From the NCBI GenBank assembly GCA_965243135.1, contig OZ251539.1, positions 128,001 through 192,000 on the forward strand: DNA of 64,000 nt, written 5' to 3'. Shown in pieces: positions 1 to 17,939 of the stretch. How positions within the stretch are numbered: position 1 is the stretch's first letter; every line of letters starts with the position of its first letter. This DNA is from Alphaproteobacteria bacterium. Its GTDB lineage: Bacteria > Pseudomonadota > Alphaproteobacteria > MPNO01 > UBA830. A program made the translations under genes and the position numbers. A model generated the notes under the pieces. The model saw only the letters and a list, made by a program, of their open reading frames with translations. It searched no databases and was not told where the DNA came from.

Positions 1-3000
1 TGAACGTCAGGAGAGCGGGCGAGACCGTCAGGTCGGCGTCGTCCGGGGCGATCTCGACCGTCACGTCCCCGGCGGGTTCGCTGGTCGGCGCCACCGTGTA
101 TTCGGCGCTCGCGCCCACCGCCGCCGCCACCGTCGCCGCCGGGTCGAACGCGAATCCCCTCTCGTCGTCGTCCGTGATCGTCAGTTCCGCCCCGGTGACG
201 GCCACGGTCGTGGAATCGGCGGCGGCCCGGTCGTTCTCGGCCCTCCCCGAGACCGTCACCGTCTTGTCCGCCGCGTCCACGTCGTCGTCCACCGCCGTGA
301 TCGTCACCTCGCCGGCGCTCGCGATCTCGCCGGCTCCGATGGTCAGCATCGCGTTCGCGCTCAGCGCGTAGTCGCCCGCCGCCGAAGACTCCACCGTGAT
401 CGTCGTCGCCGTGCCCGACGGGTGCGAGAGCCGCGCCGTCACCGTCGTCCGCCGCTCCTCCGCCGGCGCCTCCGGGTTCTCATCGACGACCGTCCTCGAC
501 AGCGCCAGCGTCACGGTGGGCGTCGCGTCGTCGTCCGCGTTCGTCACCGACACGTCGTCGACGTCGCCGGCCTCCAGCCCGTCATAGGCGGCGGCAGTCG
601 CGCTCGACGGGTCTCCCGTCTCGATGACGTAGGACGCGTCGCCGTCGTCCGCGTCGTCGTCTACGCCGGTCACCGTCACCGTCTGCGCCGTGTTCCAGTT
701 CCCTGCGGTGAAGGTCAGCGAGGACGGCGACACCGCGCCCTCGCCCGGGTCCGAACTGGCCAACGGCACGGCCACGACCCCTTCCGGCTCGCTGAGCAGT
801 CTCACCGTGAAGGTCGCCGCGCCCCCCCCCTCCGTCGTCGACAGACCCGACGTCGGCGACACCTCCACGCCCGCTTCGTCGTCGAGGTTGCGGGCGTAGA
901 TGGCGGCGGCGGAAAGCGCGTCGTAGTTGGCGTCCGCCGTGTTGGTCGTGTCCACCGTCAGCGTGACCGTGTAGTTCTGGCTGCCGTCGGGCGCGCCGGG
1001 GTTGTCGTCCACGCCGGTCAGGGTCACCGTCTGCGCCGTGTTCCAGTCAGTCGGAGTGAAGGTCAGCGACGACGGCGACGCCGTGCCCTGGGCCGTGTCC
1101 TGGCTCGCAACGTCGATCTCCACGTTCCCGGTCGGCTCGGTCGCCAGCGTCACCTCGACCGTGGCCTGACTGCCGTCCTCCGACGTGCGCACCCGCGAGG
1201 CCGTCGTCGTCTCCGGATCCATCACGACCCCCGCCGTGTCGTCGTCGGCGATGGTCAGGGACGCCCCGGTCGCCGCCGCCGTCACGCCGTGGCCGTTGGC
1301 GGCCGTTCCCGTCACCGTCGCCGCGTTGTCCGCCGCGTCCACGGCGTTGTCCACCGCGGTAATCGTCGCCGTGTCCGAGCTCGCGGTCTGCCCCGCCGCG
1401 ACGACGATGGTGGCCCCCGCCCCCGAGGCCACCGAATAGACGTTGGCCTGCGCCGTCACCGTCACCGTGGTCGGCTGGCTCGACCTGCCCGAGAGCGTCG
1501 CGCTCACCGCCGCCGTCCCGCCGTTCTCCGAAATCGACATCGGGTTCGCCGAGAGCGTGACGGTCGGCGTCGCGTCGTCGTCCTCCAAGGTCAACGTCAC
1601 GTTGGTGACGTTGCCCGCGCCCTGGCCGTTGGCCGCCGTCGCCGTCACCGTCGCCATCCGGTTCGGCTCGTCCACGTCGTTGTTCACGGCGGTAATGGTC
1701 ACCGTGTCCGAGGCTGCCGTCGTGTCGCCCGCCGCGATGACGATGCGGCCCGCCGCCCCCGAAGGAACCGTGAAGAATCCGGAGGAGGCCGTCACCGTCA
1801 CCGTCGTCGCCGCGCTCGACGGGTGCGACAGCGCCGCCGACACCGCCGCCGTCCCGCCGTTCTCGGCGATCGAGGCGTCCGACAGAGAGAGCGTCACCCC
1901 CGGCGCCGCATCGTCGTCGGTGATGGTCAGCGTCACCGACGGCGGGTTGTTGGCGAGGCCCAGGTTGTCGGACGCCGTGCCGGAAACCGTCACCGTTTTG
2001 TTCGGCGCGTCGGTGTCGTTGTCGGTCGCCGTGATCGTCACCGCGCCGGCGCTGGCGGTGGCGTTGGCCGCGAAGGTCAGCGTGTTGGCGGAACTCAGCG
2101 TGAAGTCCGTCCCCGAGCCGGGCGAAGCCGAAACCGTCACCGTCACCGCCACGGCGGACATCCGGTCCAGGGTCGCCGTCACCGTGGTCGCGCCGCCGTT
2201 CTCCCCGATCGAAGACGACGACAGCGCCAGCGTCACCTGCGGCGTATCGTCGTCCGTCAGCGTCAGCACGGCATTGGCCGGGTTCGCCGCCCCGTTGCCG
2301 CCGGCGGAGGTGGCCGAGACCGTCACCTGCTTGCTGCCCGACGCCACCATGTTGTCGTTGGCCCGGATCGTCACCCGCCCGGTGCTGGCGGTGGCCTCGG
2401 CCGCGATGGTCAGAGTCGTTCCCGTCTGCGAGAAGTCCGCCGGCGCCGCCTTGGCTCCCGCCGCCGACGCCACCGTCAGCGTCAGCGCCTGGCTCGACTT
2501 GCCATCCAGCGTCGCCGTCACCGTCGTCACCCCGCCGGCCTCCGCAATCGAACTCGACGACAGCGCCAGCGTCGCCGCCGGCAGGGTCTCGTCGTCTTCC
2601 AGCGTCAACTGCGCCCCGGTGACGCTGCCCGCGCCCCGGTCGTTGGCCAGCGTCGCCGTCACCGTCGCCGTCCGGTCGGGCTCGTCGACGTCGTTGTCCA
2701 CCGCCGCGATCGCCGCCGTGTCGGAGGCGGCCGTGGTGTCCCCGGCGGCGATGACGATGGTGGCGTCCGAACCCACCGTGTAGAAGCCGGAGACGGCGGT
2801 CACCGTCACCGTGGTCGCCGCCGCCGAGGCGCGCGACAGGGTGGCGCTGACCGCCGAGGCGCCGCCGTTCTCGGCAATCGAGGCATCCGACAGGGCGAGC
2901 GTCGCCCCCGGCGGCGACTCGTCGTCGGTCAGCGTCAGCGTCGCCGCGGTGACGGCCATGGTGGTGGAATCGGCGCTGGCGCGGTCGTTCGCCACCGTCG

Positions 3001-6000
3001 CCGTCACCGTCGCCTGGCGACCGGGGCCGCCCTGGTGGACGGCGTCGTTCACCGCCGTGATCGTCACCGTGTCCGAGGCGTTCACCGTGTTCCCGGCCGC
3101 GATCACGATCCTGCCCGCCGCGCCCGACGGCGCCGTGAAGGCGCCGGACACTCCCGTTACCGTCACCGTGGTCGCCGCACCCGATGGGCGCGACAGGACG
3201 GCGCGGACGGTCGCCGCGCCGCCGTTCTCCGAGATCGCCGCCGGCGAGACCGCCAGCGTCACGCCCGGCGGGCCGTCGTCGTCGGTCGTGGTCACCGACA
3301 CGTCCGCGTCCGCCAGCGCGTTGTAGTTGGCGTCGCCGCTGGACGGGTCCAGACGCACGTCCCAGGAGACGTCGCCGTCGTCGACGTCGTCGTCCTCCCC
3401 GGTCACCGTCACCATCCGGGTCGCGCTCCAGGAGCCCGGCTGGAAGGTCAGGGTGGAGGGCGATACCCGGCCCTCGCTGCTATCGCGGCTGGTCACCGCC
3501 ACCGTCACCGCCTGCGCGGGCCGGCTCAGCAGCGCCACGGTGAAGGTCGCCGTCCCGCCCGCCTCCGTCGCCTGGCCGGTCACCTCCCCCACCACCAGGC
3601 GGTATTCGTCGTCGGCGTTCTCCGCATAGACGGTCACGGCCGAAAGCGCGTCATAGACGGCATCGGCCGTGTTGGCCGTGTCCACCGTCAGCGTCGCCTG
3701 GTAGTCCTGGTTGCCGTCGGCGGCGGCATCGTCCTGGCCGGTCAGGGTCACCGTCTGCGCCGTGTTCCAGTTGGTCGAGGTGAAGGTCAGCGACGAGGGC
3801 GACACCGCCCCTTCCGTCGCATCCGAGCTGGCCAGGTCCAGTTCCACGTTCCCGGTCGGCTCGCTCTCCAGCGCCACCGTGAAAGCCGCCGTCCCGCCCG
3901 CCTCCGTCGTCCGCAGCCGCGACGAGGTCGACGTCGTGGGCAAGATCGCGAACCCCGCCGTGTCGTCGTCGGCGATGGTCAGCGACGCCCCGGCGACGGC
4001 GCCCACGGCATGGCCGTTGCCCGCCGTCGCCGTCACCGTCGCCGCGTTGTCCGCCGCGTCCACGTCATTGTCCGCGGCGGTGATCGTCACCGTGTCGCCG
4101 GCGGCCGTCGTGTCGCCGGCGGCAATCACGATCCGCCCCGCCGCCCCCGACGGCGCCGAATAGACGTTCGTCTGCGCCGTCACCGTCACCGTGGTCGGCT
4201 CGCTCGACTTGCCCGAGAGCGTCGCGCTCACCGTCGCCGTGTCGCCGCTCTCGGAGATCGACGTCGGGTTCACCGACAGCGTCACCGTCGGCGTCGCCTC
4301 GTTGTCCCTGATCGTCAGCGTCGCACTGGTGACGCTGCCCGCGCCCTGACTATTGGCCACCGTCGCCGTCACCGTCACCATCCGGTCCGGCTCGTCGACG
4401 TCGTTGTCCACCGAGGTGATCGACACCGTATGCGAGCTGGTGGTGTTGCCGGCCGTGAATACGATCCGCCGCCCCGCCCCCGACGGCGCCGTGAAGGCCC
4501 CGGCCACCGGCGTCACCGTCACCGTGGTCGCCGCGCTCGACGGATGAGACAGCGTCGCCGACACCGCCGACGGCTGGACGTTCTCCCAGATCGACGCCAC
4601 GTTCAGCGACAGCGTCACCCCCGGCGCGCCGTCGTCGTCGCGAATGGTCAGGGTCTTGCCGGCCGGGTCCGCCACCCCGCGCCCTCCGTCCGCAGTTCCG
4701 GAGACCGTCACCTCCCTGTTCGGCGCATCGACGTCGTTGTCGTTCGCCGTCACCGTCACCAGGCCGGCGCTGGCGGTGGCGCCGGCGGCGATGGTCAGGG
4801 TGTTGGTCGAAGACAGCGCGTAGTCGCCCGCCACCGCCCCGGTCGAGGACACCGGCGACAGCGAGACCGTCACCGTCACCGGCTCGCTGGAGCCGTGGTC
4901 CAGACGCGCCGTCACCGTGGTCACGTTCGACGCGCCGCTCTCGTCGATGGCGGCGGCCGACAGCAGCAGCGTCGCCGTGGGCAGCGCGTCGTCGTCGGTC
5001 AGCGTCAGCGTCAGCGACGACGGCGCCGCCACGTTGTTGCCCCCCGTCACCATGCCCGAGACCGTCACCGGCTTGTTCGGCGAGTCCACCGTGTTGCCGT
5101 TGGCCGTCACCGTCACCACGCCGGCGCTGGTCGTGCCGCCGGCCGCGATGGTCAGGGTCTTGGCCGCGGAAAGGTCGAAGTCGGCCGCCGCCGCGCCGGT
5201 CCCGGCCGCCGCCCCCACCGTCACCGTCACCGCCTCGCTCGACTTGCCCGAAAGCGTCGCCGTCACCGTCGCCACTCCGCCCGTCTCCGAGATCGACGGG
5301 GACGACAGCGCCAGCGCCACGGTCGGCAAGGTCTCGTCGTCGGTCAGGGTCAGCGTCACGTTCGGCGGCGCCGCCGCATTGTTGCCGCCCGCCGCAGCGG
5401 CGGAGACCGTCACCGACTTGTCTCCCGAATGGACGTCGTTGCCGTTGGCCGTCACCGTCACCGTACCGGCGCTGGTCGTGCCGCCGGCCGCGATGGTGAG
5501 CGTCTTTGCGGCGGAAAGGCCGAAGTCGGCCGCCGCCGCGCCGGTCCCGGCCGCCGCCCCCACCGTCACCGTCACCGCTTCGCTCGACTTGCCCGAAAGC
5601 GTCGCCGTCACCGTCGCCACTCCGCCCGTCTCCGAGATCGACGGGGACGACAGCACCAGCGCCACGGTCGGCAAGGTCTCGTCGTCGGTCAGGGTCAGCG
5701 TCACGTTCGGCGGCGCCGCCACATTGTTGCCGCCCGCCGCGGCGGCGGAGACCGTCACCTGCTTGTCTCCCGAATGGACGTCGTTGCCGTTGGCCGTCAC
5801 CGTCACCGTACCGGCGCTGGTCGTTCCGCCGGCCGCGATGGTGAGCGTCTTTGCGGCGGAAAGATCGAAATCCGCCGCCGCCGCGCCGCTGCCCGCCGCC
5901 GCCGCCACCGTCACCGTCACCGCCTCGCTGGAGACGGCCGAAAGCGTCGCCGTCACCGTCGCCACCCCGCCCGTCTCCGAGATCGACGAGGACGACAGCG

Positions 6001-9000
6001 CCAGCGCCACGGTCGGCAGCGTCTCGTCGTCCGTCAGCGTCAGGGTCACGCTCGACGGGTTCGACAACAGGCCGTGGCCGCCCGCCACCGTTCCCGAGAT
6101 CGTCACCTGCTTGTCGGGCGCGTCCACGTCGTTGCCGTTCGCCGTCACCGTCGCCACGCCGACGCTTGCCGTCGAACCCGCCGCAATGGTCAGCGTCTTC
6201 GCGGTGGAGAGGTCGAAGTCGGCCGCCGCCGCGCCGGTCCCGGGCGAAGCCGCCACCGTCACCGTCACCGCGTCGTCGGACTTGCCCGACAGCGTCGCCG
6301 TCACCGTGGCCACCCCGCCCGTCTCCGAGATCGACGAGGACGACAGCGCCAGCGTCACGGTCGGCGTGGGGTCGTTGTCGTCCTTGGTGACGTCCACGGT
6401 CTCGTCGTCCAGGGCGCCGTAATGGCTGTCGCCGCCGCTGGCCGCATCCAGCGTGATCGCCACCGGCAGGTTCGCCGGGTCGTCCCGGTCGTCGTCCACC
6501 GCCGTAACCCGCAGCGTCTGGGCGTCGTTCCAGTCGCCGGCGGTGAACGCCAGCTCCTTCGAGGCCGCGAAGGCGCGCGCATTCGCGTCGCCGGCGTTCC
6601 TGGCCAGCTGCACCTCGTCGCCATCGGCGCTGGTCGCCGTCACCGTCACCGCCGCCGCCGGCTTGCTCGTCAGCTTCACCGTGAAGGTCCGCTCCGCCCC
6701 GCCTTCCGTCACCGTCAGCGCGCTCTCGGAGACCGTCAGCCCGGCCGTATCGACGTCGGTCGTCCGCACGGTCTGCGGACGCGCGCTCGCGCCGCCGATG
6801 ACGTGATAGGCGTCGGTCGCCTCGTCCGGGGTGTCCGGGACCAGGCGGAGGGTGTAGTCGTCGTCGCCGTCCACCACGTCGTCGACCACGCCGTGCAACG
6901 TCACCGTCTGCGCGGTCTCCCAGTTGGTCGCGGTGAAGGTCAGCCGGGTCGAGGCCGCCGCCGCGCCGCTGCCCGAAGACACCAGGCCCTCGTCCGACTC
7001 GCTGCTCTTCACCGCCACCACGATGCTCGTGGTCGGCTCGCTGTTCAGCTTCACCGTGAAGGTGTCGCTCGCGCCTTCGGCCACGCTGAGCCACACCGGG
7101 CACGGCGCCCGGCGGCAACGCGGGAAGGCCGGGTCGGTCACCAGCGCGGCGCGGTCGTCCTCCCAGATCAGCAGTTCCACGTCGGCCGGGGCCGCCAGGG
7201 TCAGCGCGCTGCCGAGGACGCCCTTCACCACCACTTTCTTGCCGGCGACGGCGTCGTCGACGATGGAGTCGATGCGGTCGTCCACCGCCGTGATCGTCAC
7301 CGTCCCCGCGCTGGCGGTGCTCCCGGCCGCGATGGTCAGCGTCTTCGCCGTCGACAGCGTGAAGTCGTCCGCCGCCGCATTGGTGTCCGCCGTCGCCGAG
7401 ACCGTGACGGTCACCGCCGCGCTGGCCGGGACGCTCAGCCGCGCCGTCACCGTGGTCATGCGCTCGGAGCCCGGCGCCGTAGCCAGCTCCTTGATGGTGT
7501 CCGCCTGGCCCGAGATCGGGTCCGACAGCAGCAGCGTCAGCGTCGCCGTGTCGTCGTCGGTCAGCGTCAGCGTCAGCGACGACGGCTCCGCCACGTCGTT
7601 GCCGCCCGTCGCAGTGCCGGAGACCGTCACCGACTTGTCCGGCGAGTCCACCGTGTTGCCGTTGGCCGTCACCGTCACCGTACCGGCGCTGGCGGTGCTC
7701 CCCGCCGCGATCGTCAAGGTATTCGCCGCGGAAAGGTCGAAGTCCGCCGCCGCCGCGCCAGTTCCGGGCAAAGCCGAAACCGTCACCGTCACCGCTTCGC
7801 TCGATTTGCCCGAAAGCGTCGCCGTCACAGTCGCCGCCCCGCCGGTCTCCGAGATCGAGGACGACGACAGCGCCAGCGCCAGGGTCGGCAGCGTCTCGTC
7901 GTCGGCGAGCGTCAGGGTCAGCGACGACGGCGCCGCCACGTCGTTGCCGCCCGCCGCGGCGCCGGAGACCGTCACCGACTTGTTCCCCGAATGGAGGTCG
8001 TTGCCGTTCGCCGCGATCGTCACGTCGCCGCTGCTGGCGGTGCTGCCGGCCGCGATCGTCAAGGTATTCGCCGCGGAAAGGTCGAAGTCCGCCGCCGCCG
8101 CGCCGGTCCCGGCCGCCGCCCTCACCGTCACCGTCGTCGCCTCGCTCGACTTGCCCGAAAGCGTCGCCGTCACCGTCGCCTCGCCGCCCTGCTCCGAAAT
8201 CGAACTCTCCGACAGCGCCAACGTCACCGTCGGCAGGCTCTCGTCGTCGGCGAGCGTCAGCGTCACGTCGTCCGGGTCCGACGCCCCGTCGCCGCCGTCC
8301 GCCGTGGCGGAGACCGTCACCGACTTGTCCCCCGAATGGACGTCGTTGCCGTTGGCCGTCACCGTCACCGTACCGGCGCTGGCGGTGGCGCCGGCCGCGA
8401 TGGTCAGGGTATTCGTCGCGGAAAGGTCGAAGTCCGCCGCCGCCGCGCCCGTCCCGGCCGCCGCCACCGTCACCGTCGTCGCCTCGCTCGCCGCCTTGTC
8501 CAGCGTCGCCGTCACCGTCGCCACGCCGCCCGTCTCCGAGATCGAGGATGCCGACAGCGCCAGCGTCACCACCGGCTTGTCGTCGTCCTCGACCGTCACC
8601 GTCACCGCGACGGGACGCTGCGCATGGGCCACGCCCTGCCCCACGTCGCCGAGCCCGTAGCCGGCCACGACGTATCTGAGGCGCAAGGTCCCGTCCTGGT
8701 GGTCGGCGTCCGCGAGGGCGTTCACGGACACCGTCTGCGCCGTGTTCCAGTCCGACGCCGTGAAGGAGTAGTTGATCCCCTGTGGGAAGCCGTGGCTGCC
8801 CTCCAGCTGGAGTCCGATGTCGGGGTAGATGCCGACCCAGGTCGTCTGTCCGGCAGGCGGTTCGCTGTCCAGGACCAGGGTGAGGTTCTTGCCGGAGCCC
8901 TCCTCGGTCAGGGTCAGGGCGGTGGGGGTGAAGGTCACGCCCGCCGTGTCGTCGTCGGTGAGCGTCAGCGTCAGGTCCGACGGCGCCGCCACCCCGTGGC

Positions 9001-12000
9001 CGCCCGCCAGGGTGACGGAGATCGTCACCGACTTGTCCGCCGTGTCCACGTCGTTGCCGTTGGCCGTCACCGTCACCACGCCCGCGCTGGCGGTGGCCCC
9101 GGCCGCGATGGTCAGCGTCTTCGCCGTGGAAAGCGCGAAGTCCGCCGCCGCCGCTCCCGTCCCGGCCGCAGCCGCCACCGTCGCCGTCAACGCTTCGCCC
9201 GATTTGCCCGAAAGCGTCGCCGTCACCGTCGTCACCCCGCCCGTCTCCGAAATCGACGTCGCCGACAACGCCAGCGTCAACGTCGGAAGAGCCTCGTCGT
9301 CGGCGATGGTCAGGACGACGTCCGACGGCTGGACCAGGGTCGTGCCGGAGCTGGCCGCGCCGGACACCGTCACGTTTCTGTCGGGCGCGTGGCGATCGTC
9401 GTCGGCGGCCGTCAAGGTCACCACGCCCGCGCTGGCGGTGGCGCCGGCCGCGATGGTCAGCGCGTTCGTCGAACTCAGCGTGAAGTCCGTCCCCGAGCCG
9501 GGCGAAGCCGAAACCGTGACCGTGACCGCCGCGCTGGGCGCCAGGTCCAGGCTGGCCGTCACCGTCGCCGCGCCGCCGTTCTCCGCGATGGACGAGGAAG
9601 ACAGCTCCAGCGTCACCGTCGGCGTCTCGTCGTCCTCCAGGGTCAGCGTCAGGTTCGAAGGCGCCGCCACGCCGCGGCCGCCCGCCGCCGCCGCGGAGAC
9701 CGTCACTTGCTTGTCCGGCGCGTCCACGTCGTTGTCGTTGGCCGTCACCGTCACCGCGCCGACGCTGGCCGTGTTCCCCGCCGCGATGGTCAGGGTCTTG
9801 GCGGCGGAAAGGTCGAAGTCCGCCGCCGCCGCCCCCGCGCCGGGCGCGGCCGCCACCGTCAACGTCACCGCCTCGCTGGACGGCCGCGACAGCGTCGCCG
9901 TCACCGACGCCACCCCGCCGTTTTCGGAAATCGACGCCGGCGACAACGCCAGCGCCGCCGTCGGCAACGGATCGTCGTCGGTCAAGGTCAGCGGCACGCC
10001 GGGAGGCGCCGCGGCGTCGCCGTTCACCGTCCCCGAAACCGTCACCGACTTGTCCGGCGAGTCGGCGTCATTGTTCACCGCCGTGATCGTCACCGTGCCG
10101 GTGCTGGCGGTGGCCCCGGTCGCGAAGACCAGTTCCGGCGTCGCCGGCAGGCTGACGTCGGACGCCGCGGCGCCGTCGCCGGGCGTCACCGCCACCGTGA
10201 TCGTCGTCGGCGACAACGCCCCCTTGTCCAGCGTCGCCGTCACCGTCGCCACCCCGCCGTTTTCCCCGATCGAAGACGCCGACAGCGTCAGCGCCGCGTT
10301 CGGCGGCACCGCGACGGGCACCCATTCGGCGGCGAGAACGGCCGTGGGGCTTTTGTAAAAGACGATGACCACGCCGTCATTGTCGATCTCCGCCTGCGTC
10401 AGCGAGATCGTCGAGGGCACCGACGAGTGCCTGCCGATTCGCCGGCAGGCGCTCCCCAGCCTGTCTTGCGTGAACGTTCCATTCGTATACGCAACCCTCC
10501 TGTCGGCGCACGCATATATGTCGAAGGACCCCAAAGTCGCGTCTCCCACGATCCCGATCGGCTGCGAAGCCGTCTTGCCGACCAGGGACGCCGTGGTGAC
10601 GTCCAAGGCGCTCCTGGAGTAGGCGCCGGCGTTGTTCTTCCATGTCGTCGCGATCGGCAGCGAGCCGTCATTGTCGGCGATCGTCAGCGTAAGGCTCGCC
10701 GGGTCCTGCAGCCCGCCGCCCGTCACTCTGCCCGACACCGTCACCCGCTTGTTCGCCGTCCGCTCGTTGTCGTTGACGGCGGCGATCGTCACCGCGCCGA
10801 CGCTGGCCGTCGCCCCCGCCGCGATGGTCAGCGTGTTCGTCGAACTCAGCGTGAAATCGCCGTCCGCCGCGCCGGACGAAGACACCGCCGCCGCCGACAC
10901 CGCGATCGTCGTCGCCCGGCCCGACGCCACTCTCAGGCCGGCGGTCACCGTCGCCACTCCGCCTCCTTCCGAGATCGACGACGACGACAGCGACAAGGTC
11001 ACGTCCGGCTCCCGGTCGTCCTCGTCGATGGTCAGCGTCACGGCGCGGGGAGCCTTCACGTCGCCGGCCGCCGTCCCCGAAACGGTCACCGACCTGGCCC
11101 GCGAGTGGATCGCGTCGTCCACCGCCGCGATCGTCACCGCACCGGCGCTCGAGGTCGCGCCGCGGGCGAAAACCAGCGCGGCGCCGGACAGTCTGAAGTT
11201 GCCCGCAGCGGCGTTCGCGCCCGGGGCCGCCGCCACCGTGATCGTCGCCGCCGAAAGCGCCGCCTTGTCGAGCGTCGCCGTCACCGTGGCCACGCCGCCG
11301 TTCTCCGAAATCGACGACGGCGACACCGCCAGCGTCGCTTTCGGCAGCGCCACGATGGGCACCCATTCCGCGTAGTAATTGGTCCCGGCGTTTTCAATGA
11401 GGATGACCACGCCGTCGTTGTCGATCATCGCCTGCGTCAGCGATATCGCCGAGGGCACCTCGTCGTAGGCGAGGTTCGTGCAGATATTGCGGTCGGGCGG
11501 CGGGACCGTCCTGGTGGGGCATGCCCAGACATCGCCGTTTGCAGTTAGCAGGTCACGGGTGATCGCGATCGGCTGCGAAGCCGTCTTGCCGAGCAGCCGC
11601 TGCGTCGTAACGTCCCAATCATCGACCAAATGATTGAAGAGAAAGGTACTTCGCCACGACGTCCCGGCGGTCGGCACCGCGTCGTCGTTGTCCTCGATCG
11701 TCAGCGTCACGCTCGCCGGATCCGCCCGTCCGCCGCCGTCCACCGCGCCCGAAACCGTCACCGACTTGTTCGACGCCTGATCCACGTCGTCGTTCACGGC
11801 CGCGATCGTCACTCTGCCGGCGCTGGCCGTCGCATTGGCCGCGATGGTCAGCTTCGTTCCCGTCTGCGTGAAGTCCGCCATCGTGGCGCCGCTTCCCGCC
11901 GCCGCCGACACCGTGACCGTCGTCGCCACGTTCTCCGCCGCGCTCAAGCTGGCGGTCACCGTCGCCACTCCGCCGCCCTCCGAGATCGACGCGGGCGACA

Positions 12001-12484
12001 GCGACAGCGTCACAGTCGCCGCATCGTCGTCGACGATGCCCAGCGTCACGAAGCGGGGTGTCCGCACGTCGCCGTTCACCGTCCCCGAAACCCTCACCGA
12101 CTTGCCCCACAGGCGCGCCGCGTTGTCCACCGCGGTTATCGTCACCACGCCCGTACTGGTCGTGTTCCCGGCCGCGATGGTCAGCGTCTTCGCCGTGGAG
12201 AGCGTGAAGTCGGCGCGAGTAGCGACGCCCGCGGGGTCGGCCGACACCGTGATCGTCGCGGCCGCGCTCGACGCGCCGGAAAGCGTCGCCGTCACCGTGG
12301 CCACGCCGCCGTTCTCCGAAATCGACGGCGCGGACAGCACCAGCGCCGCCGTCGGCCGCACGTCCTGCGCCGCCGCCTCGGGCGGGGCGGCGACCGTCAC
12401 GGCGGCGAACAGCGCCAACGCCGCAAGAGGACCGCCCGCCCGAACGTTCTCCCCGGCGGTGCGGCGGTTTTCCGACTTCGGCAC
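1..12484 (-). CDS. Giant secreted repetitive surface protein/adhesin (Calx-beta/Ig-like ~110-115 aa repeats), >4100 aa, 3' end outside the window
   Basis: Manual minus-strand translation: GGAGGT SD, then GTG at 12484, MPKSENRRTAGENVRAGGPLAALALFAAVTVAAPPEAAAQD (signal-peptide-like, AAA|Q). Followed by repeats of the type ISENGGVATVTATLS...LTIAAG..S.G.VTVTA.DN....DK.VTVSG....LTLTDDD. The same frame reads sensibly at the left edge (DADLTVSPALLTF). The R-rich + ORF 422..11548 is its antisense shadow in the same codon register. Not every codon was checked by hand. Confidence 0.9.
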   Translation of the reverse strand, partial: MPKSENRRTAGENVRAGGPLAALALFAAVTVAAPPEAAAQDVRPTAALVLSAPSISENGGVATVTATLSGASSAAATITVSADPAGVATRADFTLSTAKTLTIAAGNTTSTGVVTITAVDNAARLWGKSVRVSGTVNGDVRTPRFVTLGIVDDDAATVTLSLSPASISEGGGVATVTASLSAAENVATTVTVSAAAGSGATMADFTQTGTKLTIAANATASAGRVTIAAVNDDVDQASNKSVTVSGAVDGGGRADPASVTLTIEDNDDAVPTAGTSWRSTFLFNHLVDDWDVTTQRLLGKTASQPIAITRDLLTANGDVWACPTRTVPPPDRNICTNLAYDEVPSAISLTQAMIDNDGVVILIENAGTNYYAEWVPIVALPKATLAVSPSSISENGGVATVTATLDKAALSAATITVAAAPGANAAAGNFRLSGAALVFARGATSSAGAVTIAAVDDAIHSRARSVTVSGTAAGDVKAPRAVTLTIDEDDREPDVTLSLSSSSISEGGGVATVTAGLRVASGRATTIAVSAAAVSSSGAADGDFTLSSTNTLTIAAGATASVGAVTIAAVNDNERTANKRVTVSGRVTGGGLQDPASLTLTIADNDGSLPIATTWKNNAGAYSRSALDVTTASLVGKTASQPIGIVGDATLGSFDIYACADRRVAYTNGTFTQDRLGSACRRIGRHSSVPSTISLTQAEIDNDGVVIVFYKSPTAVLAAEWVPVAVPPNAALTLSASSIGENGGVATVTATLDKGALSPTTITVAVTPGDGAAASDVSLPATPELVFATGATASTGTVTITAVNNDADSPDKSVTVSGTVNGDAAAPPGVPLTLTDDDPLPTAALALSPASISENGGVASVTATLSRPSSEAVTLTVAAAPGAGAAAADFDLSAAKTLTIAAGNTASVGAVTVTANDNDVDAPDKQVTVSAAAAGGRGVAAPSNLTLTLEDDETPTVTLELSSSSIAENGGAATVTASLDLAPSAAVTVTVSASPGSGTDFTLSSTNALTIAAGATASAGVVTLTAADDDRHAPDRNVTVSGAASSGTTLVQPSDVVLTIADDEALPTLTLALSATSISETGGVTTVTATLSGKSGEALTATVAAAAGTGAAAADFALSTAKTLTIAAGATASAGVVTVTANGNDVDTADKSVTISVTLAGGHGVAAPSDLTLTLTDDDTAGVTFTPTALTLTEEGSGKNLTLVLDSEPPAGQTTWVGIYPDIGLQLEGSHGFPQGINYSFTASDWNTAQTVSVNALADADHQDGTLRLRYVVAGYGLGDVGQGVAHAQRPVAVTVTVEDDDKPVVTLALSASSISETGGVATVTATLDKAASEATTVTVAAAGTGAAAADFDLSATNTLTIAAGATASAGTVTVTANGNDVHSGDKSVTVSATADGGDGASDPDDVTLTLADDESLPTVTLALSESSISEQGGEATVTATLSGKSSEATTVTVRAAAGTGAAAADFDLSAANTLTIAAGSTASSGDVTIAANGNDLHSGNKSVTVSGAAAGGNDVAAPSSLTLTLADDETLPTLALALSSSSISETGGAATVTATLSGKSSEAVTVTVSALPGTGAAAADFDLSAANTLTIAAGSTASAGTVTVTANGNTVDSPDKSVTVSGTATGGNDVAEPSSLTLTLTDDDTATLTLLLSDPISGQADTIKELATAPGSERMTTVTARLSVPASAAVTVTVSATADTNAAADDFTLSTAKTLTIAAGSTASAGTVTITAVDDRIDSIVDDAVAGKKVVVKGVLGSALTLAAPADVELLIWEDDRAALVTDPAFPRCRRAPCPVWLSVAEGASDTFTVKLNSEPTTSIVVAVKSSESDEGLVSSGSGAAAASTRLTFTATNWETAQTVTLHGVVDDVVDGDDDYTLRLVPDTPDEATDAYHVIGGASARPQTVRTTDVDTAGLTVSESALTVTEGGAERTFTVKLTSKPAAAVTVTATSADGDEVQLARNAGDANARAFAASKELAFTAGDWNDAQTLRVTAVDDDRDDPANLPVAITLDAASGGDSHYGALDDETVDVTKDDNDPTPTVTLALSSSSISETGGVATVTATLSGKSDDAVTVTVAASPGTGAAAADFDLSTAKTLTIAAGSTASVGVATVTANGNDVDAPDKQVTISGTVAGGHGLLSNPSSVTLTLTDDETLPTVALALSSSSISETGGVATVTATLSAVSSEAVTVTVAAAAGSGAAAADFDLSAAKTLTIAAGGTTSAGTVTVTANGNDVHSGDKQVTVSAAAAGGNNVAAPPNVTLTLTDDETLPTVALVLSSPSISETGGVATVTATLSGKSSEAVTVTVGAAAGTGAAAADFGLSAAKTLTIAAGGTTSAGTVTVTANGNDVHSGDKSVTVSAAAAGGNNAAAPPNVTLTLTDDETLPTVALALSSPSISETGGVATVTATLSGKSSEAVTVTVGAAAGTGAAAADFDLSAAKTLTIAAGGTTSAGVVTVTANGNTVDSPNKPVTVSGMVTGGNNVAAPSSLTLTLTDDDALPTATLLLSAAAIDESGASNVTTVTARLDHGSSEPVTVTVSLSPVSSTGAVAGDYALSSTNTLTIAAGATASAGLVTVTANDNDVDAPNREVTVSGTADGGRGVADPAGKTLTIRDDDGAPGVTLSLNVASIWENVQPSAVSATLSHPSSAATTVTVTPVAGAFTAPSGAGRRIVFTAGNTTSSHTVSITSVDNDVDEPDRMVTVTATVANSQGAGSVTSATLTIRDNEATPTVTLSVNPTSISESGDTATVSATLSGKSSEPTTVTVTAQTNVYSAPSGAAGRIVIAAGDTTAAGDTVTITAADNDVDAADNAATVTATAGNGHAVGAVAGASLTIADDDTAGFAILPTTSTSSRLRTTEAGGTAAFTVALESEPTGNVELDLASSDATEGAVSPSSLTFTSTNWNTAQTVTLTGQDDAAADGNQDYQATLTVDTANTADAVYDALSAVTVYAENADDEYRLVVGEVTGQATEAGGTATFTVALLSRPAQAVTVAVTSRDSSEGRVSPSTLTFQPGSWSATRMVTVTGEDDDVDDGDVSWDVRLDPSSGDANYNALADADVSVTTTDDDGPPGVTLAVSPAAISENGGAATVRAVLSRPSGAATTVTVTGVSGAFTAPSGAAGRIVIAAGNTVNASDTVTITAVNDAVHQGGPGRQATVTATVANDRASADSTTMAVTAATLTLTDDESPPGATLALSDASIAENGGASAVSATLSRASAAATTVTVTAVSGFYTVGSDATIVIAAGDTTAASDTAAIAAVDNDVDEPDRTATVTATLANDRGAGSVTGAQLTLEDDETLPAATLALSSSSIAEAGGVTTVTATLDGKSSQALTLTVASAAGAKAAPADFSQTGTTLTIAAEATASTGRVTIRANDNMVASGSKQVTVSATSAGGNGAANPANAVLTLTDDDTPQVTLALSSSSIGENGGATTVTATLDRMSAVAVTVTVSASPGSGTDFTLSSANTLTFAANATASAGAVTITATDNDTDAPNKTVTVSGTASDNLGLANNPPSVTLTITDDDAAPGVTLSLSDASIAENGGTAAVSAALSHPSSAATTVTVTASSGFFTVPSGAAGRIVIAAGDTTAASDTVTITAVNNDVDEPNRMATVTATAANGQGAGNVTNVTLTLEDDDATPTVTLSANPMSISENGGTAAVSATLSGRSSQPTTVTVTAQANVYSVASGAGATIVVAAGQTASSDTATITAVDNAVDAADNAATVTGTAANGHGVTAAATGASLTIADDDTAGVVMDPETTTASRVRTSEDGSQATVEVTLATEPTGNVEIDVASQDTAQGTASPSSLTFTPTDWNTAQTVTLTGVDDNPGAPDGSQNYTVTLTVDTTNTADANYDALSAAAIYARNLDDEAGVEVSPTSGLSTTEGGGAATFTVRLLSEPEGVVAVPLASSDPGEGAVSPSSLTFTAGNWNTAQTVTVTGVDDDADDGDASYVIETGDPSSATAAAYDGLEAGDVDDVSVTNADDDATPTVTLALSRTVVDENPEAPAEERRTTVTARLSHPSGTATTITVESSAAGDYALSANAMLTIGAGEIASAGEVTITAVDDDVDAADKTVTVSGRAENDRAAADSTTVAVTGAELTITDDDERGFAFDPAATVAAAVGASAEYTVAPTSEPAGDVTVEIAPDDADLTVSPALLTF

Positions 12485-12629
12485 GTCGAACGATACCTCC
12501 CAAGCTCCTTGAAGTCATACATCAACGGTTGCGTCGTTGACACCCCGCGCGGGGACCCGGCTCCCGCGACGGACTCGATCCTTGTCGCCGACGGTCGCCC
12601 TTTTCTATGCCGCCATCAACTCTGGACGC

Positions 12630-12845
12630 GCAGCTTGAGCGTCGCCGCGTCCGTGCCGACGACCGGCCATGCCCGCACGTCGCCCAATCAGCGTATCCGG
12701 CGCAAAGTCGACACGGCGCTCGACGCCGGCGCCTTCTGGCCGGAACCGCTCCTCCAACTCAACCCGGCTTTCAAACCGGGAGGACGATCTGGTTGCGGAA
12801 GGGATACTCCACGAAGAGCGCGCCCGGATTTTCCGGCCAGACCTG
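12630..12845 (+). pseudogene. N-terminal remnant of a large DEAD/DEAH-box helicase of the type found in defence islands
   Basis: QRIRRKVDTALDAGAFWPEPLLQLNPAFKPGG then, after a frameshift, DLVAEGILHEERARIFR. Matches the recalled N-terminal WP(D/E)P..QLNP.F..GG....LV..G.LH....IFR pattern; truncated immediately after. Confidence 0.6.
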
Positions 12846-13030
12846 CCTGTGCCCCATAAGGTTTCGCTGAACTCCGGATCCTCCGCGAGCTCGTCGAGCG
12901 GGACATCCCCGTCCCGAACCTCCGCCGCGAGGAACTCCGCGGCGGCCTTTGGCGCGACCGTCTTCGCCGACGATGCGTCGGCCCGACTTGCCGGACGCTC
13001 AACGGGCATGGGACGGCGCGGCGTCCGCGC

Positions 13031-13052
13031 CTGAAATTAGGGTTGTCCCTCC
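13031..13052 (+). promoter_or_regulatory. Putative regulatory motif shared with 54928-54948
   Basis: CTGAAATTAGGGTT is identical (14 bp) at 13031 and 54928, both intergenic and upstream of + strand genes. Confidence 0.4.
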
Positions 13053-13108
13053 CCCCAACCACTGTAGAGACGGCATGGACTCAGGTGTCGTGCGCGCAAC
13101 CGAAAGGA

Positions 13109-13457
13109 ATGGCAACGAACATCAACACGCCGCTGCCGATCATGGCGGAACACGAAACCATACGCTCCGTCTCCGACGGAGGAATTCGCCACCCGGTATC
13201 GCGAGGATCCGGGCTTCCGCTCGCGAGCGGACACGAATCCGAGAGCCGTTCTCAACGACTTCGGCGTCGACCTGTCTCCCGGATACGACGTCAGGATCGA
13301 GGAGGACTTGGACGAGGTTTTCCACTTCGTCATGCCGTCCGACCCGAACATGACCTTGTCGGACGCGGACATGGAAATGATCGCCGGCGGCAAGGGGGGC
13401 AAGCGGCTCAACCCGACGTGGCAGCGCATCACCGGCAGGGAATACTCGGAGTGCTAA
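13109..13457 (+). CDS. NHLP/proteusin-like double-glycine RiPP precursor, one apparent +1 frameshift near 13170-13180
   Basis: ATG 13109 gives MATNINTPLPIMAEHETIRSVS. The +1 frame continues EEFATRYREDPGFRSRADTNPRAVLNDFGVDLSPGYDVRIEEDLDEVFHFVMPSDPNMTLSDADMEMIAGG|KGGKRLNPTWQRITGREYSEC* (TAA 13455-57). The DP.FR..../ NPRAVL / HFV.P / LSD....IAGG features are NHLP-leader hallmarks. Not in the ORF track. Confidence 0.75.
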
Positions 13458-13533
13458 ACCTTGGCCGCGCCCGGACCGTTCCTCGCCGGTTTCGGCGGCG
13501 CGGGCCGGGCGCGAACCCCGGAGCGGATTCCGA

Positions 13534-14325
13534 ATGTACTGGATAATGCAGACCCAGCTGTTCGAGGGTCTCCAGGACGCGATGGACGCCCACGCGCTCG
13601 AGGCGTTTCCCGGGGAGGCGCTGGGGGCCGTGTTCGGGAGCCGCGCCGACCCCGTTTATCGCTCCGTCGCCGAGGTCGCGGACAACTCGCGCGCCAATTT
13701 CCGGGTCGAGGAGGTCGCGCTGCGGGAAGACACGCACGGCTCCTTGCTGGCGGTGGTGCACACGCGTTCCTCGACCGCGGCCGGGAACGACGACCTCGAC
13801 CTGTCGCTGTTCGTTCCGAGCGCGGCGGAGATGCGCGCGCAGGCGGCCTTGGCGGTACCCTTCGGCGTCGTGGTGTGCGACCGGTCGCGGTGCATCGATC
13901 GCTTCTGGTTCGGGGACCAGTGCCCCATGCTGCCTCTGCTGAACCGGCCGTTCCGGCACGGGGTGACGGATTGCTACTCGCTCATTCGCGACTACTACCG
14001 TCAGGAGCGGAACGTCCTGCTGCCCGACTTTCCGCGCGACTGGAACTGGTGGTTGGAAGGTCTGGACCTCTACCGGGCGGGGTTTGAGAAGGCGGGGTTC
14101 CGGGCCATCGACGCGGCGGATTCCGGCATCGGGGACGTGGTCTTGTTCCGTGTGCGGTCGAAGGTGCCCAATCACGCGGCCGTGGTGCAGGCCGACGGGA
14201 GGATGGTGCACCACCCGGGGTCTCTCCGGCCCTACGACAGCTTGCAGACGAGCCGTTGCGAGCCGCTGGAGCGGTGGAGGCGCTTCGTCACCCATTGGCT
14301 GCGCCACGAAGGCGATGCCGGCTGA
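13534..14325 (+). CDS. JAB/Mov34-like + NlpC/P60 (C40) protein, homologous to lambdoid tail assembly protein K
   Basis: AHA..AFPGEA.G, AVVHTR...PSAAEMRAQ (degenerate JAMM), then LLNRPFRHGVTDCYSLIRDYY, LPDFPRDWNWW, GDVVLF...PNHAAV....MVHH (Cys-His-His NlpC/P60 set). Confidence 0.85.
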   Translation: MYWIMQTQLFEGLQDAMDAHALEAFPGEALGAVFGSRADPVYRSVAEVADNSRANFRVEEVALREDTHGSLLAVVHTRSSTAAGNDDLDLSLFVPSAAEMRAQAALAVPFGVVVCDRSRCIDRFWFGDQCPMLPLLNRPFRHGVTDCYSLIRDYYRQERNVLLPDFPRDWNWWLEGLDLYRAGFEKAGFRAIDAADSGIGDVVLFRVRSKVPNHAAVVQADGRMVHHPGSLRPYDSLQTSRCEPLERWRRFVTHWLRHEGDAG

Positions 14326-14571
14326 ACGCCGCGGCCGACGTGGTGCACGTCCGGCCGGGGCGCCCGAACCGCGCGTCGCCTGTTCGACCAGAACAGGTCT
14401 CCCGGGCGAGAAAGCCCCGCATGACTTGCTCGGCGTCCGCGTCCCGGCCCCAGGCGGGCGGGCAGCGGTCGTCCGGCTTCCCTGCCATGTTCCCGAAGTC
14501 GCCGGTCGGCGGATAGCCGAGACCGGGCCGCGCGCTCCTCCCGTCGGGACCGGCGCGTCGGTCGCGGCCTC

Positions 14572-16123
14572 CTCACGAGCGGGCAGAAGGACGCGGTGAA
14601 ATTGATCCTGTCCGGGAAGGATCGGACGGTGGGCGTCCAAGGCTACGTCGGGACCGGCAAGACCGCCATGCTGAACCGCGCCCTCCTGGAGAAGCGCGGG
14701 TTCAAGGTCAAGGGGCTGGTGCCGTCGGCCTCGGCCGCACGTACGCCCGCCTCCGAAGCCGGCATCGAGAGCGAGATCCTGCAACGGTTCCTTGTCCGCA
14801 ACGCCGGCGTCGCCGAGGGACGGCTCACGGACAAGGGCGAACGGACGATGCGCACGACGTTCGAGAATACCGTCCTGGTGGTGGACGAAGGATCGCTCGC
14901 CTCCACCGTCCAAGCCCGTGACCTGCTGCGGATGGCCAACGTCTTGCGCGTTTCCCGGGTCGTGCAGCTCGACGCCGTGGATGCCGACAAGCCGTTCGCG
15001 CAGCGGGCCGGCATGAAGACGGCGACGGTGGACGAGATCATGCGCCAACGCGATCCCAGCTTGAAGGCGGCGGTCGAGGCGAGCCTCGCGGACGATGCGG
15101 AGAAGGCGTTCGAGAAGCTCGGCGACGACGCGGCGGGGGTGAAGGCCGACAATCTCGCCGGCGCGCCCGCCGCCCGCTGGCTCCGGCTCTCGGCCCCTGA
15201 GCGCGGGAACGCCGGGCTGATGGCCCCGAGCCACGCGCTACGCGAGGAGATCAACGACGCGAACGGCTGATCCGCGATGGCGTGACACGGGACCGGCGAT
15301 GGAGACGAAGCGCCTAGTCTCGCTCGGCTACACGCGGGCGGAAAAGGCGCTCGCCGCCAACTACGCGCCCGGCGATGTGGTCGCGTTCCATCGCGCCTAC
15401 AAGCGGCTCGGGGTCGAGAAGGGAGACGAGTTGCGCGTCGTCGGCATCGACCGGGGCGCCGACGCCGTGAAGCTGGAGGGAAAGGACGGATCGGTCATCG
15501 CCTGGGATCCTTACAGGCTCGCCGGCAGAACCGGTGGGGTCGAGGTCTACCGTGTCGAGGAGATGGAGTTCGGCCAGGGCGATCGCATCCGCTGGACCCG
15601 GAACGATGCGCGACGCGAACTGGTCAACAGCGCTACGGCCGAGGTGACGGCGGCGAAGGATGGGACGGTGCGGTTCCATTTCGAAGACGGGCGGAGCCTG
15701 GACATGCGCCGGGATGATCCGCAGCTGCGCCACGTCGACCGCGCCTGGGCCTCCACCGTCCACGCCTTCCAGAGCCGCACCGTCGATACCGTCATCGCGG
15801 CGATGGAAGCGAATCACCCCCACCTGACGACGCAGAAGACCCTCTACGTCGAAATCAGCCGCACCCGGGACCGCGCCGAACCGGTCACCGACGACCGGAG
15901 CGCGCTGCGCGAACGGCTGGAAGTCGCCACCGGCGAGCGCACCGCGGCGCTGGAGGCGGTCAAGCCGGAAAGGACAAGGGGGCGCGAGGTGGGGCTGCAT
16001 GTGAACCGGAACGAGGACCGAGACAGCGATGCCGCCGAATCGCGACAGTCGGAACGGACGTCCAGAGCGGAAATGAAGAAGGCGCGGGTGCCGAAGAGCG
16101 TCGATCGCGACATGGAGCTGTAG
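14572..16123 (+). pseudogene. Helicase/C-terminal part of a TrwC/TraI-type (MobF) conjugative relaxase, fragmented
   Basis: LTSGQKDAVKLIL, GVQGYVGTGKT, VLVVDEGSL, EIMRQRD, GDRIRWTRND, AWASTVHAFQ, LYVEISR. Split into 14596-15270 and 15299-16123; relaxase N-terminus absent. Confidence 0.8.
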
Positions 16124-17457: not shown

Positions 17458-17566
17458 GCGACCACAATCTGTCTGACGAAGCATGACAATGGCTCAGTTC
17501 TAGGAAGAAATGTGGCGGACGCCGTTCTCGCTCGTTGCGTTGATGATGTTTTACCGAATCGATGAC

Positions 17567-17904
17567 GAGCCGCGCGCGCTGTCCGCAACGCCTTGAAATG
17601 CGAACAGCTTTCAGGAGTACCGAATTTTTTCCTCGGGTACGGAAAACTGCGAATTCTCCGCGCCGGGACCGCGATTTTCGCAGATTCCACCCACGGCCGG
17701 CCGGCCGCCGCCTACCCGATTGGCCGCCTGCGTTCAGACCACGGCCCGGCTTGCACCGGGTTTGCGGCGCGGCAACACTCGCCTTTTGTTCTGAAGACTG
17801 AGCACCCGCGAGGCCCTTACGGGCCGCCGGCGGGCGGGCGGAGCGGTTCGCGGGGCGTCGGCCGGTCGGCAGGCCGACAAAAAATGGCACAGCGCAAACG
17901 GCTC
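17567..17904. mobile_element. MITE-like dispersed repeat, copy A
   Basis: Starts GAGCCG and ends CGGCTC. The first ~145 bp and last ~55 bp align with 37102-37689 (e.g. CTCGGGTACGGAAAACTGCGAATT, GATTTTCGCAGATTCCACCC, GGCAGGCCGACAAAAA). Confidence 0.7.
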
Positions 17905-17939
17905 TGTGAGGGGGAGCCAGCTCTCATGGATGCTCGCCG

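Follow-up and report, generated by a model that had tools for sequence, protein, structure and literature searches.

A domesticated relative of phage tail-assembly protein K is a regular accessory of NHLP-type peptide clusters and has a satellite copy next to a disrupted precursor gene

Introduction

In phage tail clusters, protein K combines a JAB domain with an NlpC/P60 domain and is encoded beside the ubiquitin-like protein I, as described by Iyer, Burroughs and Aravind (PMC1779556); the accessible part of that paper also describes prophage versions with the NlpC/P60 domain only, and mentions no link to peptide clusters. The NHLP precursors, their TOMM and LanM partners and a three-part exporter were described by Haft et al. 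in 2010 (PMC2887384, accessible part). Here we analysed a stretch of 64,000 nucleotides from an alphaproteobacterial genome (contig OZ251539.1, positions 128001-192000; hereafter the window), in which an NHLP-type precursor with a double-glycine leader is followed by a gene for a K-like protein, called the enzyme below. The original prediction for this locus proposed a candidate new maturation system that pairs the precursor with a lone K-like peptidase, a domesticated phage tail protease that could act as leader peptidase or transamidase.

NHLP/proteusin-type clusters produce a wealth of heavily modified peptides, and the intracellular recognition and removal of their long leaders is only partly known. 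A conserved, unannotated accessory enzyme of such clusters is a candidate for a step still missing, and could serve to free core peptides in heterologous expression.

Results

The enzyme is a domesticated descendant of phage protein K

The enzyme gene of the window is intact, and a match to the phage family phrog_30, named "minor tail protein", spans residues 12-259 of its product (6.5e-56). The C-terminal NlpC/P60 domain was recognised by Pfam (Table 1), whereas the Prok-JAB model reached 15.5 bits (0.016) on the 263-residue protein, under its cut-off of 25. PF03412 (Peptidase_C39) gave no match in the protein at E values up to 1. The single NCBIfam match was TIGR02219 (15.2 bits against a cut-off of 81.9), and no NCBIfam model names this protein. 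In the JAB motif, H76-T-R78 stands where HxH is expected, and PSAAE (S96 to E99) where PSxxD is expected. The degenerate metal-binding motif and the intact NlpC/P60 Cys-His-His set (C147, H214 and H226) that the original prediction had read from the sequence were both borne out. The AlphaFold (AF2) model of the enzyme was confident, with a pLDDT (predicted local distance difference test) of 94.4, and the top Foldseek matches to it were MepS/Spr-type D,L-endopeptidases, an MPN-domain complex lying lower in the list.

A protein search returned 313 relatives among proteins of 144-461 residues. Those with at least 46% identity carried an NlpC/P60 call only, and those at about 40%, including proteins from Pseudomonas and Halomonadaceae, mostly carried Prok-JAB plus NlpC/P60. 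In a tree of 87 K-like proteins, made by a quick search without bootstrap, the window enzyme, two further copies from the same genome and the enzymes of 11 loci in other genomes (WIN, OWN2, OWN3 and L014-L024; 14 rows) formed a single branch with an SH-aLRT (approximate likelihood ratio test) support of 100 and a stem of 0.73. The enzyme of one more locus, L049, sat on a separate long branch, its placement being unsure.

We counted the motifs in an alignment of 121 rows, 46 from the clade and 75 others. The full JAB motif (E..HxH..S..D) was found in 0/46 clade rows versus 67/75 other rows. The JAB Asp was substituted in every clade row (Glu in 41, Gln in 5), and E, HxH and D were retained in all 75 rows outside the clade. 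The NlpC/P60 residues C147, H214 and H226 were present in all 46 clade rows. The clade is further marked by Cys130 (41/46 rows versus 3/75 of the others) and by an insert of 8-12 residues after the HxH position. No fusion of the enzyme, with a hydroxylase or otherwise, was found in proteins of 462-2000 residues at E values up to 1e-20, which is weak evidence.

Two further scans served as controls. In JGI metagenomes there were 23 loci, none above 42% identity, all of phage type and without a clade member, and the scan of viral contigs gave at least 584 relatives, the best of them 42% identical. In a phage-type control locus (L026) the genes stood in the classical tail order L-K-I-J. That context is missing around the enzymes of the clade, and Phage_tail_L had no match in the whole genome that carries the window. 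These results show that the enzyme is a domesticated descendant of lambda-type tail-assembly protein K, with a dead JAB site and an intact NlpC/P60 site, and they uphold the proposal of a phage tail K relative living outside a tail operon.

The clade accompanies NHLP genes across genomes and phyla

Scanning species-representative genomes, we obtained 38 loci, 11 of which (L014-L024, 46-90% identical) belong to the clade; their assemblies are labelled Alphaproteobacteria, Gammaproteobacteria, Vicinamibacterales and Acidobacteriota. NHLP genes were detected with a hidden Markov model built from 19 of the 22 NHLP matches of the window's genome and run on six-frame translations. An NHLP gene lay within 8 kb of the enzyme gene at 7/11 clade loci versus 1/27 non-clade loci, the one being the divergent L049. 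The other four clade loci all had arrays of 4-7 NHLP genes that begin 8.1-10.4 kb from the enzyme gene (8.1-11.9 kb away), so that NHLP genes were found within 12.5 kb at 11/11 clade loci of other genomes. None was found in 103 phage-type loci (23 from metagenomes and 80 viral, at most 42% identical). The pairing of the enzyme with NHLP genes, which the original prediction had proposed to test by looking for a GG-leader open reading frame (ORF) upstream of homologues, is not unique to the window.

We then counted neighbouring families by tblastn with family representatives within 8 kb of the enzyme gene, at 15 loci: three from the window's genome (two of which overlap), L014-L024 and L049. YcaO and Asp_Arg_Hydrox (PF05118) were each present at 9/15 loci, a LanM-type dehydratase and an unnamed family of about 250 residues at 8/15, APH at 7/15, SagB, C39 and the ABC core at 6/15 each, HlyD at 5/15 and B12 radical SAM at 3/15. 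All ten families were absent from 26 phage-type control loci. The only loci of the 15 devoid of all ten were the window and its orthologue L019. Elsewhere the enzyme lies amid classical NHLP maturation and export genes, at 10/11 clade loci and at both other copies in the window's genome, so the idea of a lone two-gene system does not hold. Nor does the enzyme simply replace C39, since a C39 transporter coexists with it within 8 kb at 6 of the 15 loci.

These results show that the enzyme is genuinely associated with NHLP genes and that this link is conserved in different genomes and phyla; they also show that the clade is a regular accessory gene of NHLP-type clusters for peptides made on the ribosome and modified after translation (RiPPs). 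The association is apparently undescribed: full-text literature searches found no paper linking an NlpC/P60-JAB-like protein to NHLP, proteusin or RiPP clusters (subscription journals and supplementary tables were outside their scope, and supplements could list the gene under another name). One literature match to C40 was the name of a mutant and not the relevant peptidase.

The unnamed family of about 250 residues was found at L014, L015, L016, L021, L022, L023, L024 and L049 (e.g. L024:2733-3482 and L049:8803-9546). It carries HxD...H-like motifs and has no Pfam match, and it is probably, judged by these motifs, an undescribed Fe/2-oxoglutarate-type oxygenase of these clusters. We also considered it as a remnant of tail protein I (as "unk250") and ruled this out by the same oxygenase-like motifs, seen by eye, and the lack of a Pfam match.

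Two further copies lie in a large NHLP cluster of the same genome

The genome (6.1 Mb, 98.8% complete) has 22 NHLP-model matches and three copies of the enzyme gene. Every copy has such a match close by, the distances being 76, 447 and 1051 bp, which is beyond chance. Copy 2 (3803838-3804632, minus strand) is 96% and copy 3 (3806537-3807319, plus strand) 74% identical to the window enzyme. They flank one intact NHLP gene (3805683-3806090), copy 2 at 1051 bp and copy 3 at 447 bp. Both lie inside a large NHLP cluster (3.78-3.815 Mb). Besides more NHLP genes, this cluster contains two genes each for YcaO/TOMM cyclodehydratases and Asp_Arg_Hydrox, as well as SagB, HlyD, a LanM-type dehydratase, a kinase of the APH type and a radical SAM gene. 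For export, the cluster has the C39 transporter NHLM_micro_ABC1 (1004 bits, cut-off 853) and NHLM_micro_ABC2.

The window itself gave no match to Peptidase_C39 (0 of 2 hits in the genome), YcaO (0/2), DUF4135/LanM (0/1) or Radical_SAM (0/18). The earlier statement that no C39, YcaO, LanM or radical SAM gene is recognisable there was correct. The combination that defines an NHLP/TOMM cluster, namely precursor, maturation enzymes and NHLM exporter, is present in the clade generally and around both other copies, and is absent from the window locus. Because the other two copies lie in a large C39-bearing NHLP cluster, we regard the window pair as a horizontally moved satellite that is not self-sufficient.

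A second C39 ABC transporter gene is located at 119087-121318, 7 kb before the window start. The region around it (G000:C1:114537-122243, 6-13.5 kb before the window start) contains the best-scoring NHLP gene of the genome, whose core has no Lys. With an HlyD-like gene nearby, the two make up a small export locus of their own, some 20 kb away from the pair.

Among relatives, 2/40 sampled genomes carry the enzyme. The three enzyme-bearing genomes, the present one included, have 19, 8 and 7 NHLP-model matches; in the 38 others the number is 0-4, and true nitrile hydratases account for many of these matches. As the relatives are not independent, this contrast is a hint.

A lysine follows the double glycine in most precursors of enzyme-bearing loci

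In at least 90% of 26 aligned precursors from enzyme-bearing loci, the residue after the GG is Lys, and the window core conforms to this. The L049 precursor has AAK at the junction position. In an enzyme-free genome of the same genus (G002), two precursors have the same Ser/Thr/Gly-rich core type, but with GG-A and GG-S. We also co-folded the enzyme (alignment A3) with the precursor (alignment A4); the scores lay on both sides of the 0.32 mark (0.37, 0.11 and 0.20), and our reading does not rest on them. At another locus (L156; G025:C1:107682-110873), the cores of two precursors begin with Cys after the GG and a second GGK follows a few residues on, which may represent two processing sites.

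The precursor of the window is a broken gene

In frame 0 of the plus strand, 13170-13457 encodes an NHLP-like leader ending in MIAGG, followed by the core KGGKRLNPTWQRITGREYSEC and the stop codon TAA (13455-13457). The spacing to the enzyme start at 13534 is exactly the one first reported, on the same strand; the precursor frame, however, is broken. Against TIGR03793, whose cut-off is 50.9, the leader piece reached 48.7 bits; the match covers model positions 10-77 of 77, positions 1-9 being absent. In all, 19/22 NHLP matches in the genome are likewise narrowly below the cut-off. It also matched NHase_alpha (nitrile hydratase alpha, 4.5e-08). The basic start of the core is similar to that of the cores adjoining the enzyme in L017 and L018. 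The alternative that the basic core is an artefact of a second frameshift, the +1 frame after the GG being Ser/Gly-rich by eye, was set aside, as a basic GGK likewise opens the cores of the intact precursors beside the enzyme in L017 and L018.

After the stop at 13065, frame 0 offers no start codon (ATG, GTG or TTG) until a TTG at 13308, which lies inside the leader. The sole start codon upstream of the leader is ATG 13109, in another frame, and the piece it opens, MATNINTPLPIMAEHETIRSVSDGG, is similar to the N-terminus of an intact paralogue (L013:16740-17150). It follows that a one-base frame change occurred near 13165-13185. Contigs of the public runs X1, X3 and X5 had no indel in this zone: X1 (12900-13611) and X3 (12900-13256) had 0 differences, and X5 (13073-13435) had 8 substitutions and no gap. 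X1 and X3 possibly come from the sample used for the genome assembly and contigs may mask rare variants, but X5 is from a different study, so the break goes beyond an artefact of this one assembly. We conclude that the window precursor is a broken gene with no intact ORF headed by a start codon.

Scanning 12500-14700 for promoters and terminators gave 0 promoter-like and 3 terminator-like sites (1.4 expected by chance). Of 11 public runs listed for the window stretch, none is an RNA run; nine hold the stretch at a share above 0.2, and two of these nine are labelled sponge metagenome. One X3 contig skips 21 bases of the precursor-enzyme spacer (13450-13472), and the spacer of L019 is longer; the spacer thus varies among strains.

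The window module is mobile and decayed

A segment with the enzyme gene is duplicated between the window and the copy 2 region (Table 1), and loose contig ends at 13508 and 14380 agree with the borders of this duplication. A longer module, which includes the precursor remnant, is shared with L019, where the precursor is missing about 170 bases, among them its start and the initial portion of the leader, and has no stop codon left. The window enzyme is 90% identical to that of L019, whereas GlmU is 60% identical between the same two genomes, and no orthologue of one other window gene was found in the L019 genome. Near-identity of the module in such distant genomes indicates that the enzyme and the precursor remnant moved together horizontally. 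Directly downstream of the window enzyme lies a decayed conjugative element: two ORFs are pieces of a TraI/TraA-type relaxase helicase, and no relaxase domain or head was found among the window ORFs scanned. With the precursor frameshifted here and its 5' part gone in L019, the window pair and its orthologue are a decayed satellite.

The enzyme has been kept in better order. Its ratio of nonsynonymous to synonymous substitution rates (dN/dS) was 0.23-0.48 between the window copy and five other copies, with 0.23 against the in-cluster copy (32 differences) and 0.35 against L019 (53 differences), and with no stop or indel. The enzyme, window copy included, is therefore under purifying selection.

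The dead remnant at 13221-13450 differs from L019:7649-7878 at 11/230 bases, and the synonymous distance of the neighbouring enzyme is 0.14.

Table 1. Features of the precursor and enzyme locus, in window coordinates
Feature	Position	Strand	Remarks
Presumed original start ATG 13109 and N-terminal precursor piece, now off-frame	13109..13184	+	Reads MATNINTPLPIMAEHETIRSVSDGG
Frame-change zone	13165..13185	+	Overlaps a palindrome with a 7-bp stem at 13165-13181
NHLP leader (frame 0)	13170..13391	+	Gly-Gly at 13386-13391; alignable with 25 other NHLP precursors
Module in common with L019, another alphaproteobacterial genome	13221..14337	+	DNA identity 95% in the precursor remnant, 93% in the enzyme
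Core peptide KGGKRLNPTWQRITGREYSEC and stop	13392..13457	+	21 residues; first residue Lys, nearly invariant after GG in the precursor group
Spacer of 76 bp between precursor and enzyme	13458..13533	+	Scanned for promoter-like and terminator-like sites: none
Intragenomic duplication	13508..14380	+	95% identical to 3803780-3804657 (minus strand); precursor outside the duplicated stretch
K-like enzyme gene, intact, 263 residues	13534..14325	+	ATG 13534 exactly 76 bases after the precursor stop
N-terminal JAB/MPN-like domain, metal site degenerate (E28, H76, R78, S96, E99)	13561..13908	+	Full-length alignment to PF14464+PF00877 proteins
C-terminal NlpC/P60 domain	13939..14313	+	Pfam NLPC_P60 3.7e-10, passes; Cys147 (13972-13974), His214 (14173-14175), His226 (14209-14211)
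Two ORFs, pieces of a TraI/TraA-type relaxase helicase	14596..16123 (14596-15270, 15299-16123)	+	AAA_30 2.2e-25; TraI models far below cut-offs

Other features of the window

A repeat of about 340 bp (17563-17909) has more than 60 full or partial copies in the genome at 75-95% identity and is probably a small non-autonomous mobile element. The segment 18285-19081 has a 91% identical copy at genome positions 1345577-1346377. Giant repeat genes form mirrored sets at opposite ends of the window (440-12500 and 56972-63175). Within 6901-8700, the sensible reading is the minus strand, with 0 stops and Calx-beta-like text (VTVTVEDDD...). Owing to the high G+C content, several other frames are open at these giant repeats, including a plus-strand Arg-rich ORF of 3708 codons that is surely not real.

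Discussion

On balance, we lean towards reading the clade as domesticated K proteins that lost the JAB site, kept the NlpC/P60 site and serve NHLP clusters as an accessory cysteine peptidase for the GG-Lys junction, the window copy being a satellite. NlpC/P60 D,L-endopeptidases cleave before a diamino acid, and JAB enzymes act on Gly-Gly ends linked to Lys. The enzyme would be a cysteine peptidase of the cytoplasm whose target is the conserved GG-Lys junction of the precursor or its immediate surroundings, and it would often act jointly with the PF05118 hydroxylase to which it is translationally coupled; the dead JAB domain would bind the di-glycine end of the leader, and the NlpC/P60 centre would cut before the Lys. 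These properties of the two parent families make such a division of labour coherent, and it comes near to the original prediction. In the window, a module of about 1.1 kb with enzyme and precursor would have arrived horizontally beside the decayed conjugative element, the precursor breaking afterwards, and the intact enzyme could work in trans on the many other GG-Lys NHLP precursors of the genome. A bolder version is conceivable, and we hold it only tentatively: a single capture of a phage tail-tip protease gave rise to the dedicated GG-Lys junction enzyme of a family of NHLP clusters found across phyla (Alpha-/Gammaproteobacteria, Acidobacteriota), its dead JAB domain, which formerly recognised ubiquitin-like Gly-Gly tails, now reading the Gly-Gly of the leader and its NlpC/P60 domain cutting before the Lys or coupling something to it.

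Several points weigh against a GG-Lys peptidase. Contact with the precursor, or its cleavage, is what we infer from sequence. A second leader peptidase looks redundant, as many clusters already have a C39 transporter that cuts after the GG. The lysine contrast rests on few enzyme-free genomes, namely G002 (two precursors) and G001 (one). The closest linkage of the enzyme is to a hydroxylase rather than to the precursor, so that other chemistry is possible; the cores beside coupled hydroxylase-enzyme pairs (L020, L024 and L049) contain no Asp or Asn, which leaves the hydroxylase's own substrate unclear. The window and L019 pairs cannot function as units, because the adjacent precursor is broken. 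Finally, the remnant shared with L019 is less diverged than the enzyme's synonymous distance, and at least 8 of its 11 differences change a residue, which is unexplained.

The strongest competitor, though we consider it unlikely, is that the enzyme is the partner of the PF05118 hydroxylase. Instead of removing the leader, the enzyme would perform a different reaction on the conserved Lys or at the core's N-terminus (for example acyl transfer, or transamidation via a Cys thioester, as in LRAT-like NlpC/P60 proteins), or would merely dock the leader for the small hydroxylase. Lys-directed transfer or hydroxylase docking is a serious rival because C39 is already present in clusters and because the enzyme's strongest linkage is to this family: the hydroxylase gene, the tightest partner, ends 0-84 bp upstream of the enzyme start on the same strand in five loci (L015, L020, L023, L024 and L049), and the two appear often to be translationally coupled. 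Among NCBIfam models, the hydroxylase comes nearest to two that act on acyl chains, OlsC (1.3e-35) and LpxO, though it stays far under either cut-off. The lack of Asp and Asn in cores next to coupled pairs and the nearly invariant Lys after the GG also speak for this rival. Fatty-acylated NHLP peptides, the selidamides, do exist, though GNAT-made according to the accessible part of PMC10849128. On the other hand, L017, L018, L021 and L022 have the enzyme and no PF05118 gene within 8 kb, the search for fusions found no enzyme-hydroxylase protein, the annotated neighbours include no acyl-carrier or acyl-activating gene, and PMC1779556 (accessible part) treats the proteins from which the enzyme descends as peptidases. 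The junction peptidase is our preferred reading.

For the window alone, it could be argued that nothing is functional, and that precursor and enzyme are leftovers of a transferred fragment in which the enzyme ORF is intact only through recency. The broken precursors here and in L019, the neighbouring relaxase fragments and repeats, the lack of maturation genes in the window and the residue-changing differences in the remnant are consistent with this. The enzyme, however, has accumulated 32 and 53 differences from its two comparison copies at low dN/dS and without a stop or indel, and many intact GG-Lys precursors in the genome are possible targets in trans; we judge complete loss of function in the window improbable.

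A role as a cell-wall hydrolase or self-protection factor, opening the peptidoglycan for an envelope-spanning NHLP exporter or protecting the producer, is very unlikely in our view. In its favour, the solved structures closest in fold are D,L-endopeptidases of peptidoglycan such as MepS, LytE and RipA, copy 2 directly precedes a TolC-like OEP gene near ABC genes, and in L018 an HlyD gene divergently adjoins the enzyme gene. Inspection of the enzyme N-terminus found no obvious signal peptide or membrane segment, however; in the predicted model the N-terminus lies within the folded JAB domain, and the gene stands mostly amid cytoplasmic tailoring enzymes. That the enzyme is an ordinary prophage tail gene K beside an NHLP gene by chance we count as already refuted, because the match to phrog_30 and the identity of about 40% to Pseudomonas and Halomonadaceae prophage K are outweighed by the absence of Phage_tail_L from the genome, the distance of even the best viral relative, the separate clade with NHLP genes near 11/11 loci and the loss of the JAB motif in every clade row.

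On its own, the window is of modest interest, as a satellite copy beside a dead precursor. If the reading of the enzyme as acting on the GG-Lys junction is true, the clade would be a RiPP leader peptidase or transamidase of a new class, and a clear instance of secondary metabolism taking over an enzyme of virion assembly. It offers a testable example of a phage assembly protein that became a metabolic enzyme with one catalytic site off in every member. To our knowledge, the role of phage protein K has not been demonstrated at the bench, and the clade provides an indirect handle on it.

Among known systems, the proposed arrangement recalls the lasso-peptide B1/B2 pair, which consists of a leader-binding module and a transglutaminase-fold cysteine protease. 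By this description, both would join a binding module to a papain-like Cys protease for cytoplasmic leader removal; in the present case a dead JAB domain, and not a RiPP recognition element (RRE), would do the binding, and we claim no homology. The C39 domain of bacteriocin ABC exporters is likewise a papain-like Cys-His peptidase tied to double-glycine leaders, whereas the enzyme belongs to another family with no sequence relation detected, is unfused to a transporter and coexists with C39 in clusters. Phage lambda K (TAPK; phrog_30), paired with the ubiquitin-like I, is the closest relative by descent: homology is full-length at about 40% identity, with the same two-domain fold and the same NlpC/P60 Cys-His-His, and even the suggested substrate logic, a partner domain ending in glycine, is similar (PMC1779556, accessible part). 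The clade differs in its lost JAB metal site, the insert and Cys130, and in its RiPP neighbours, with no L, I or J nearby and no L in the genome. The surroundings are those of the NHLP/TOMM clusters with the NHLM exporter (TIGR03793, TIGR03796, TIGR03797 and TIGR03794), with which they share the leader family, the GG end, the YcaO/SagB and LanM-type partners and the three-part exporter. The description in the accessible part of PMC2887384 names no NlpC/P60 or JAB protein, and the words "hydroxylase" and "lysine" have 0 occurrences there, whereas the precursors reported here carry a conserved Lys directly after the GG.

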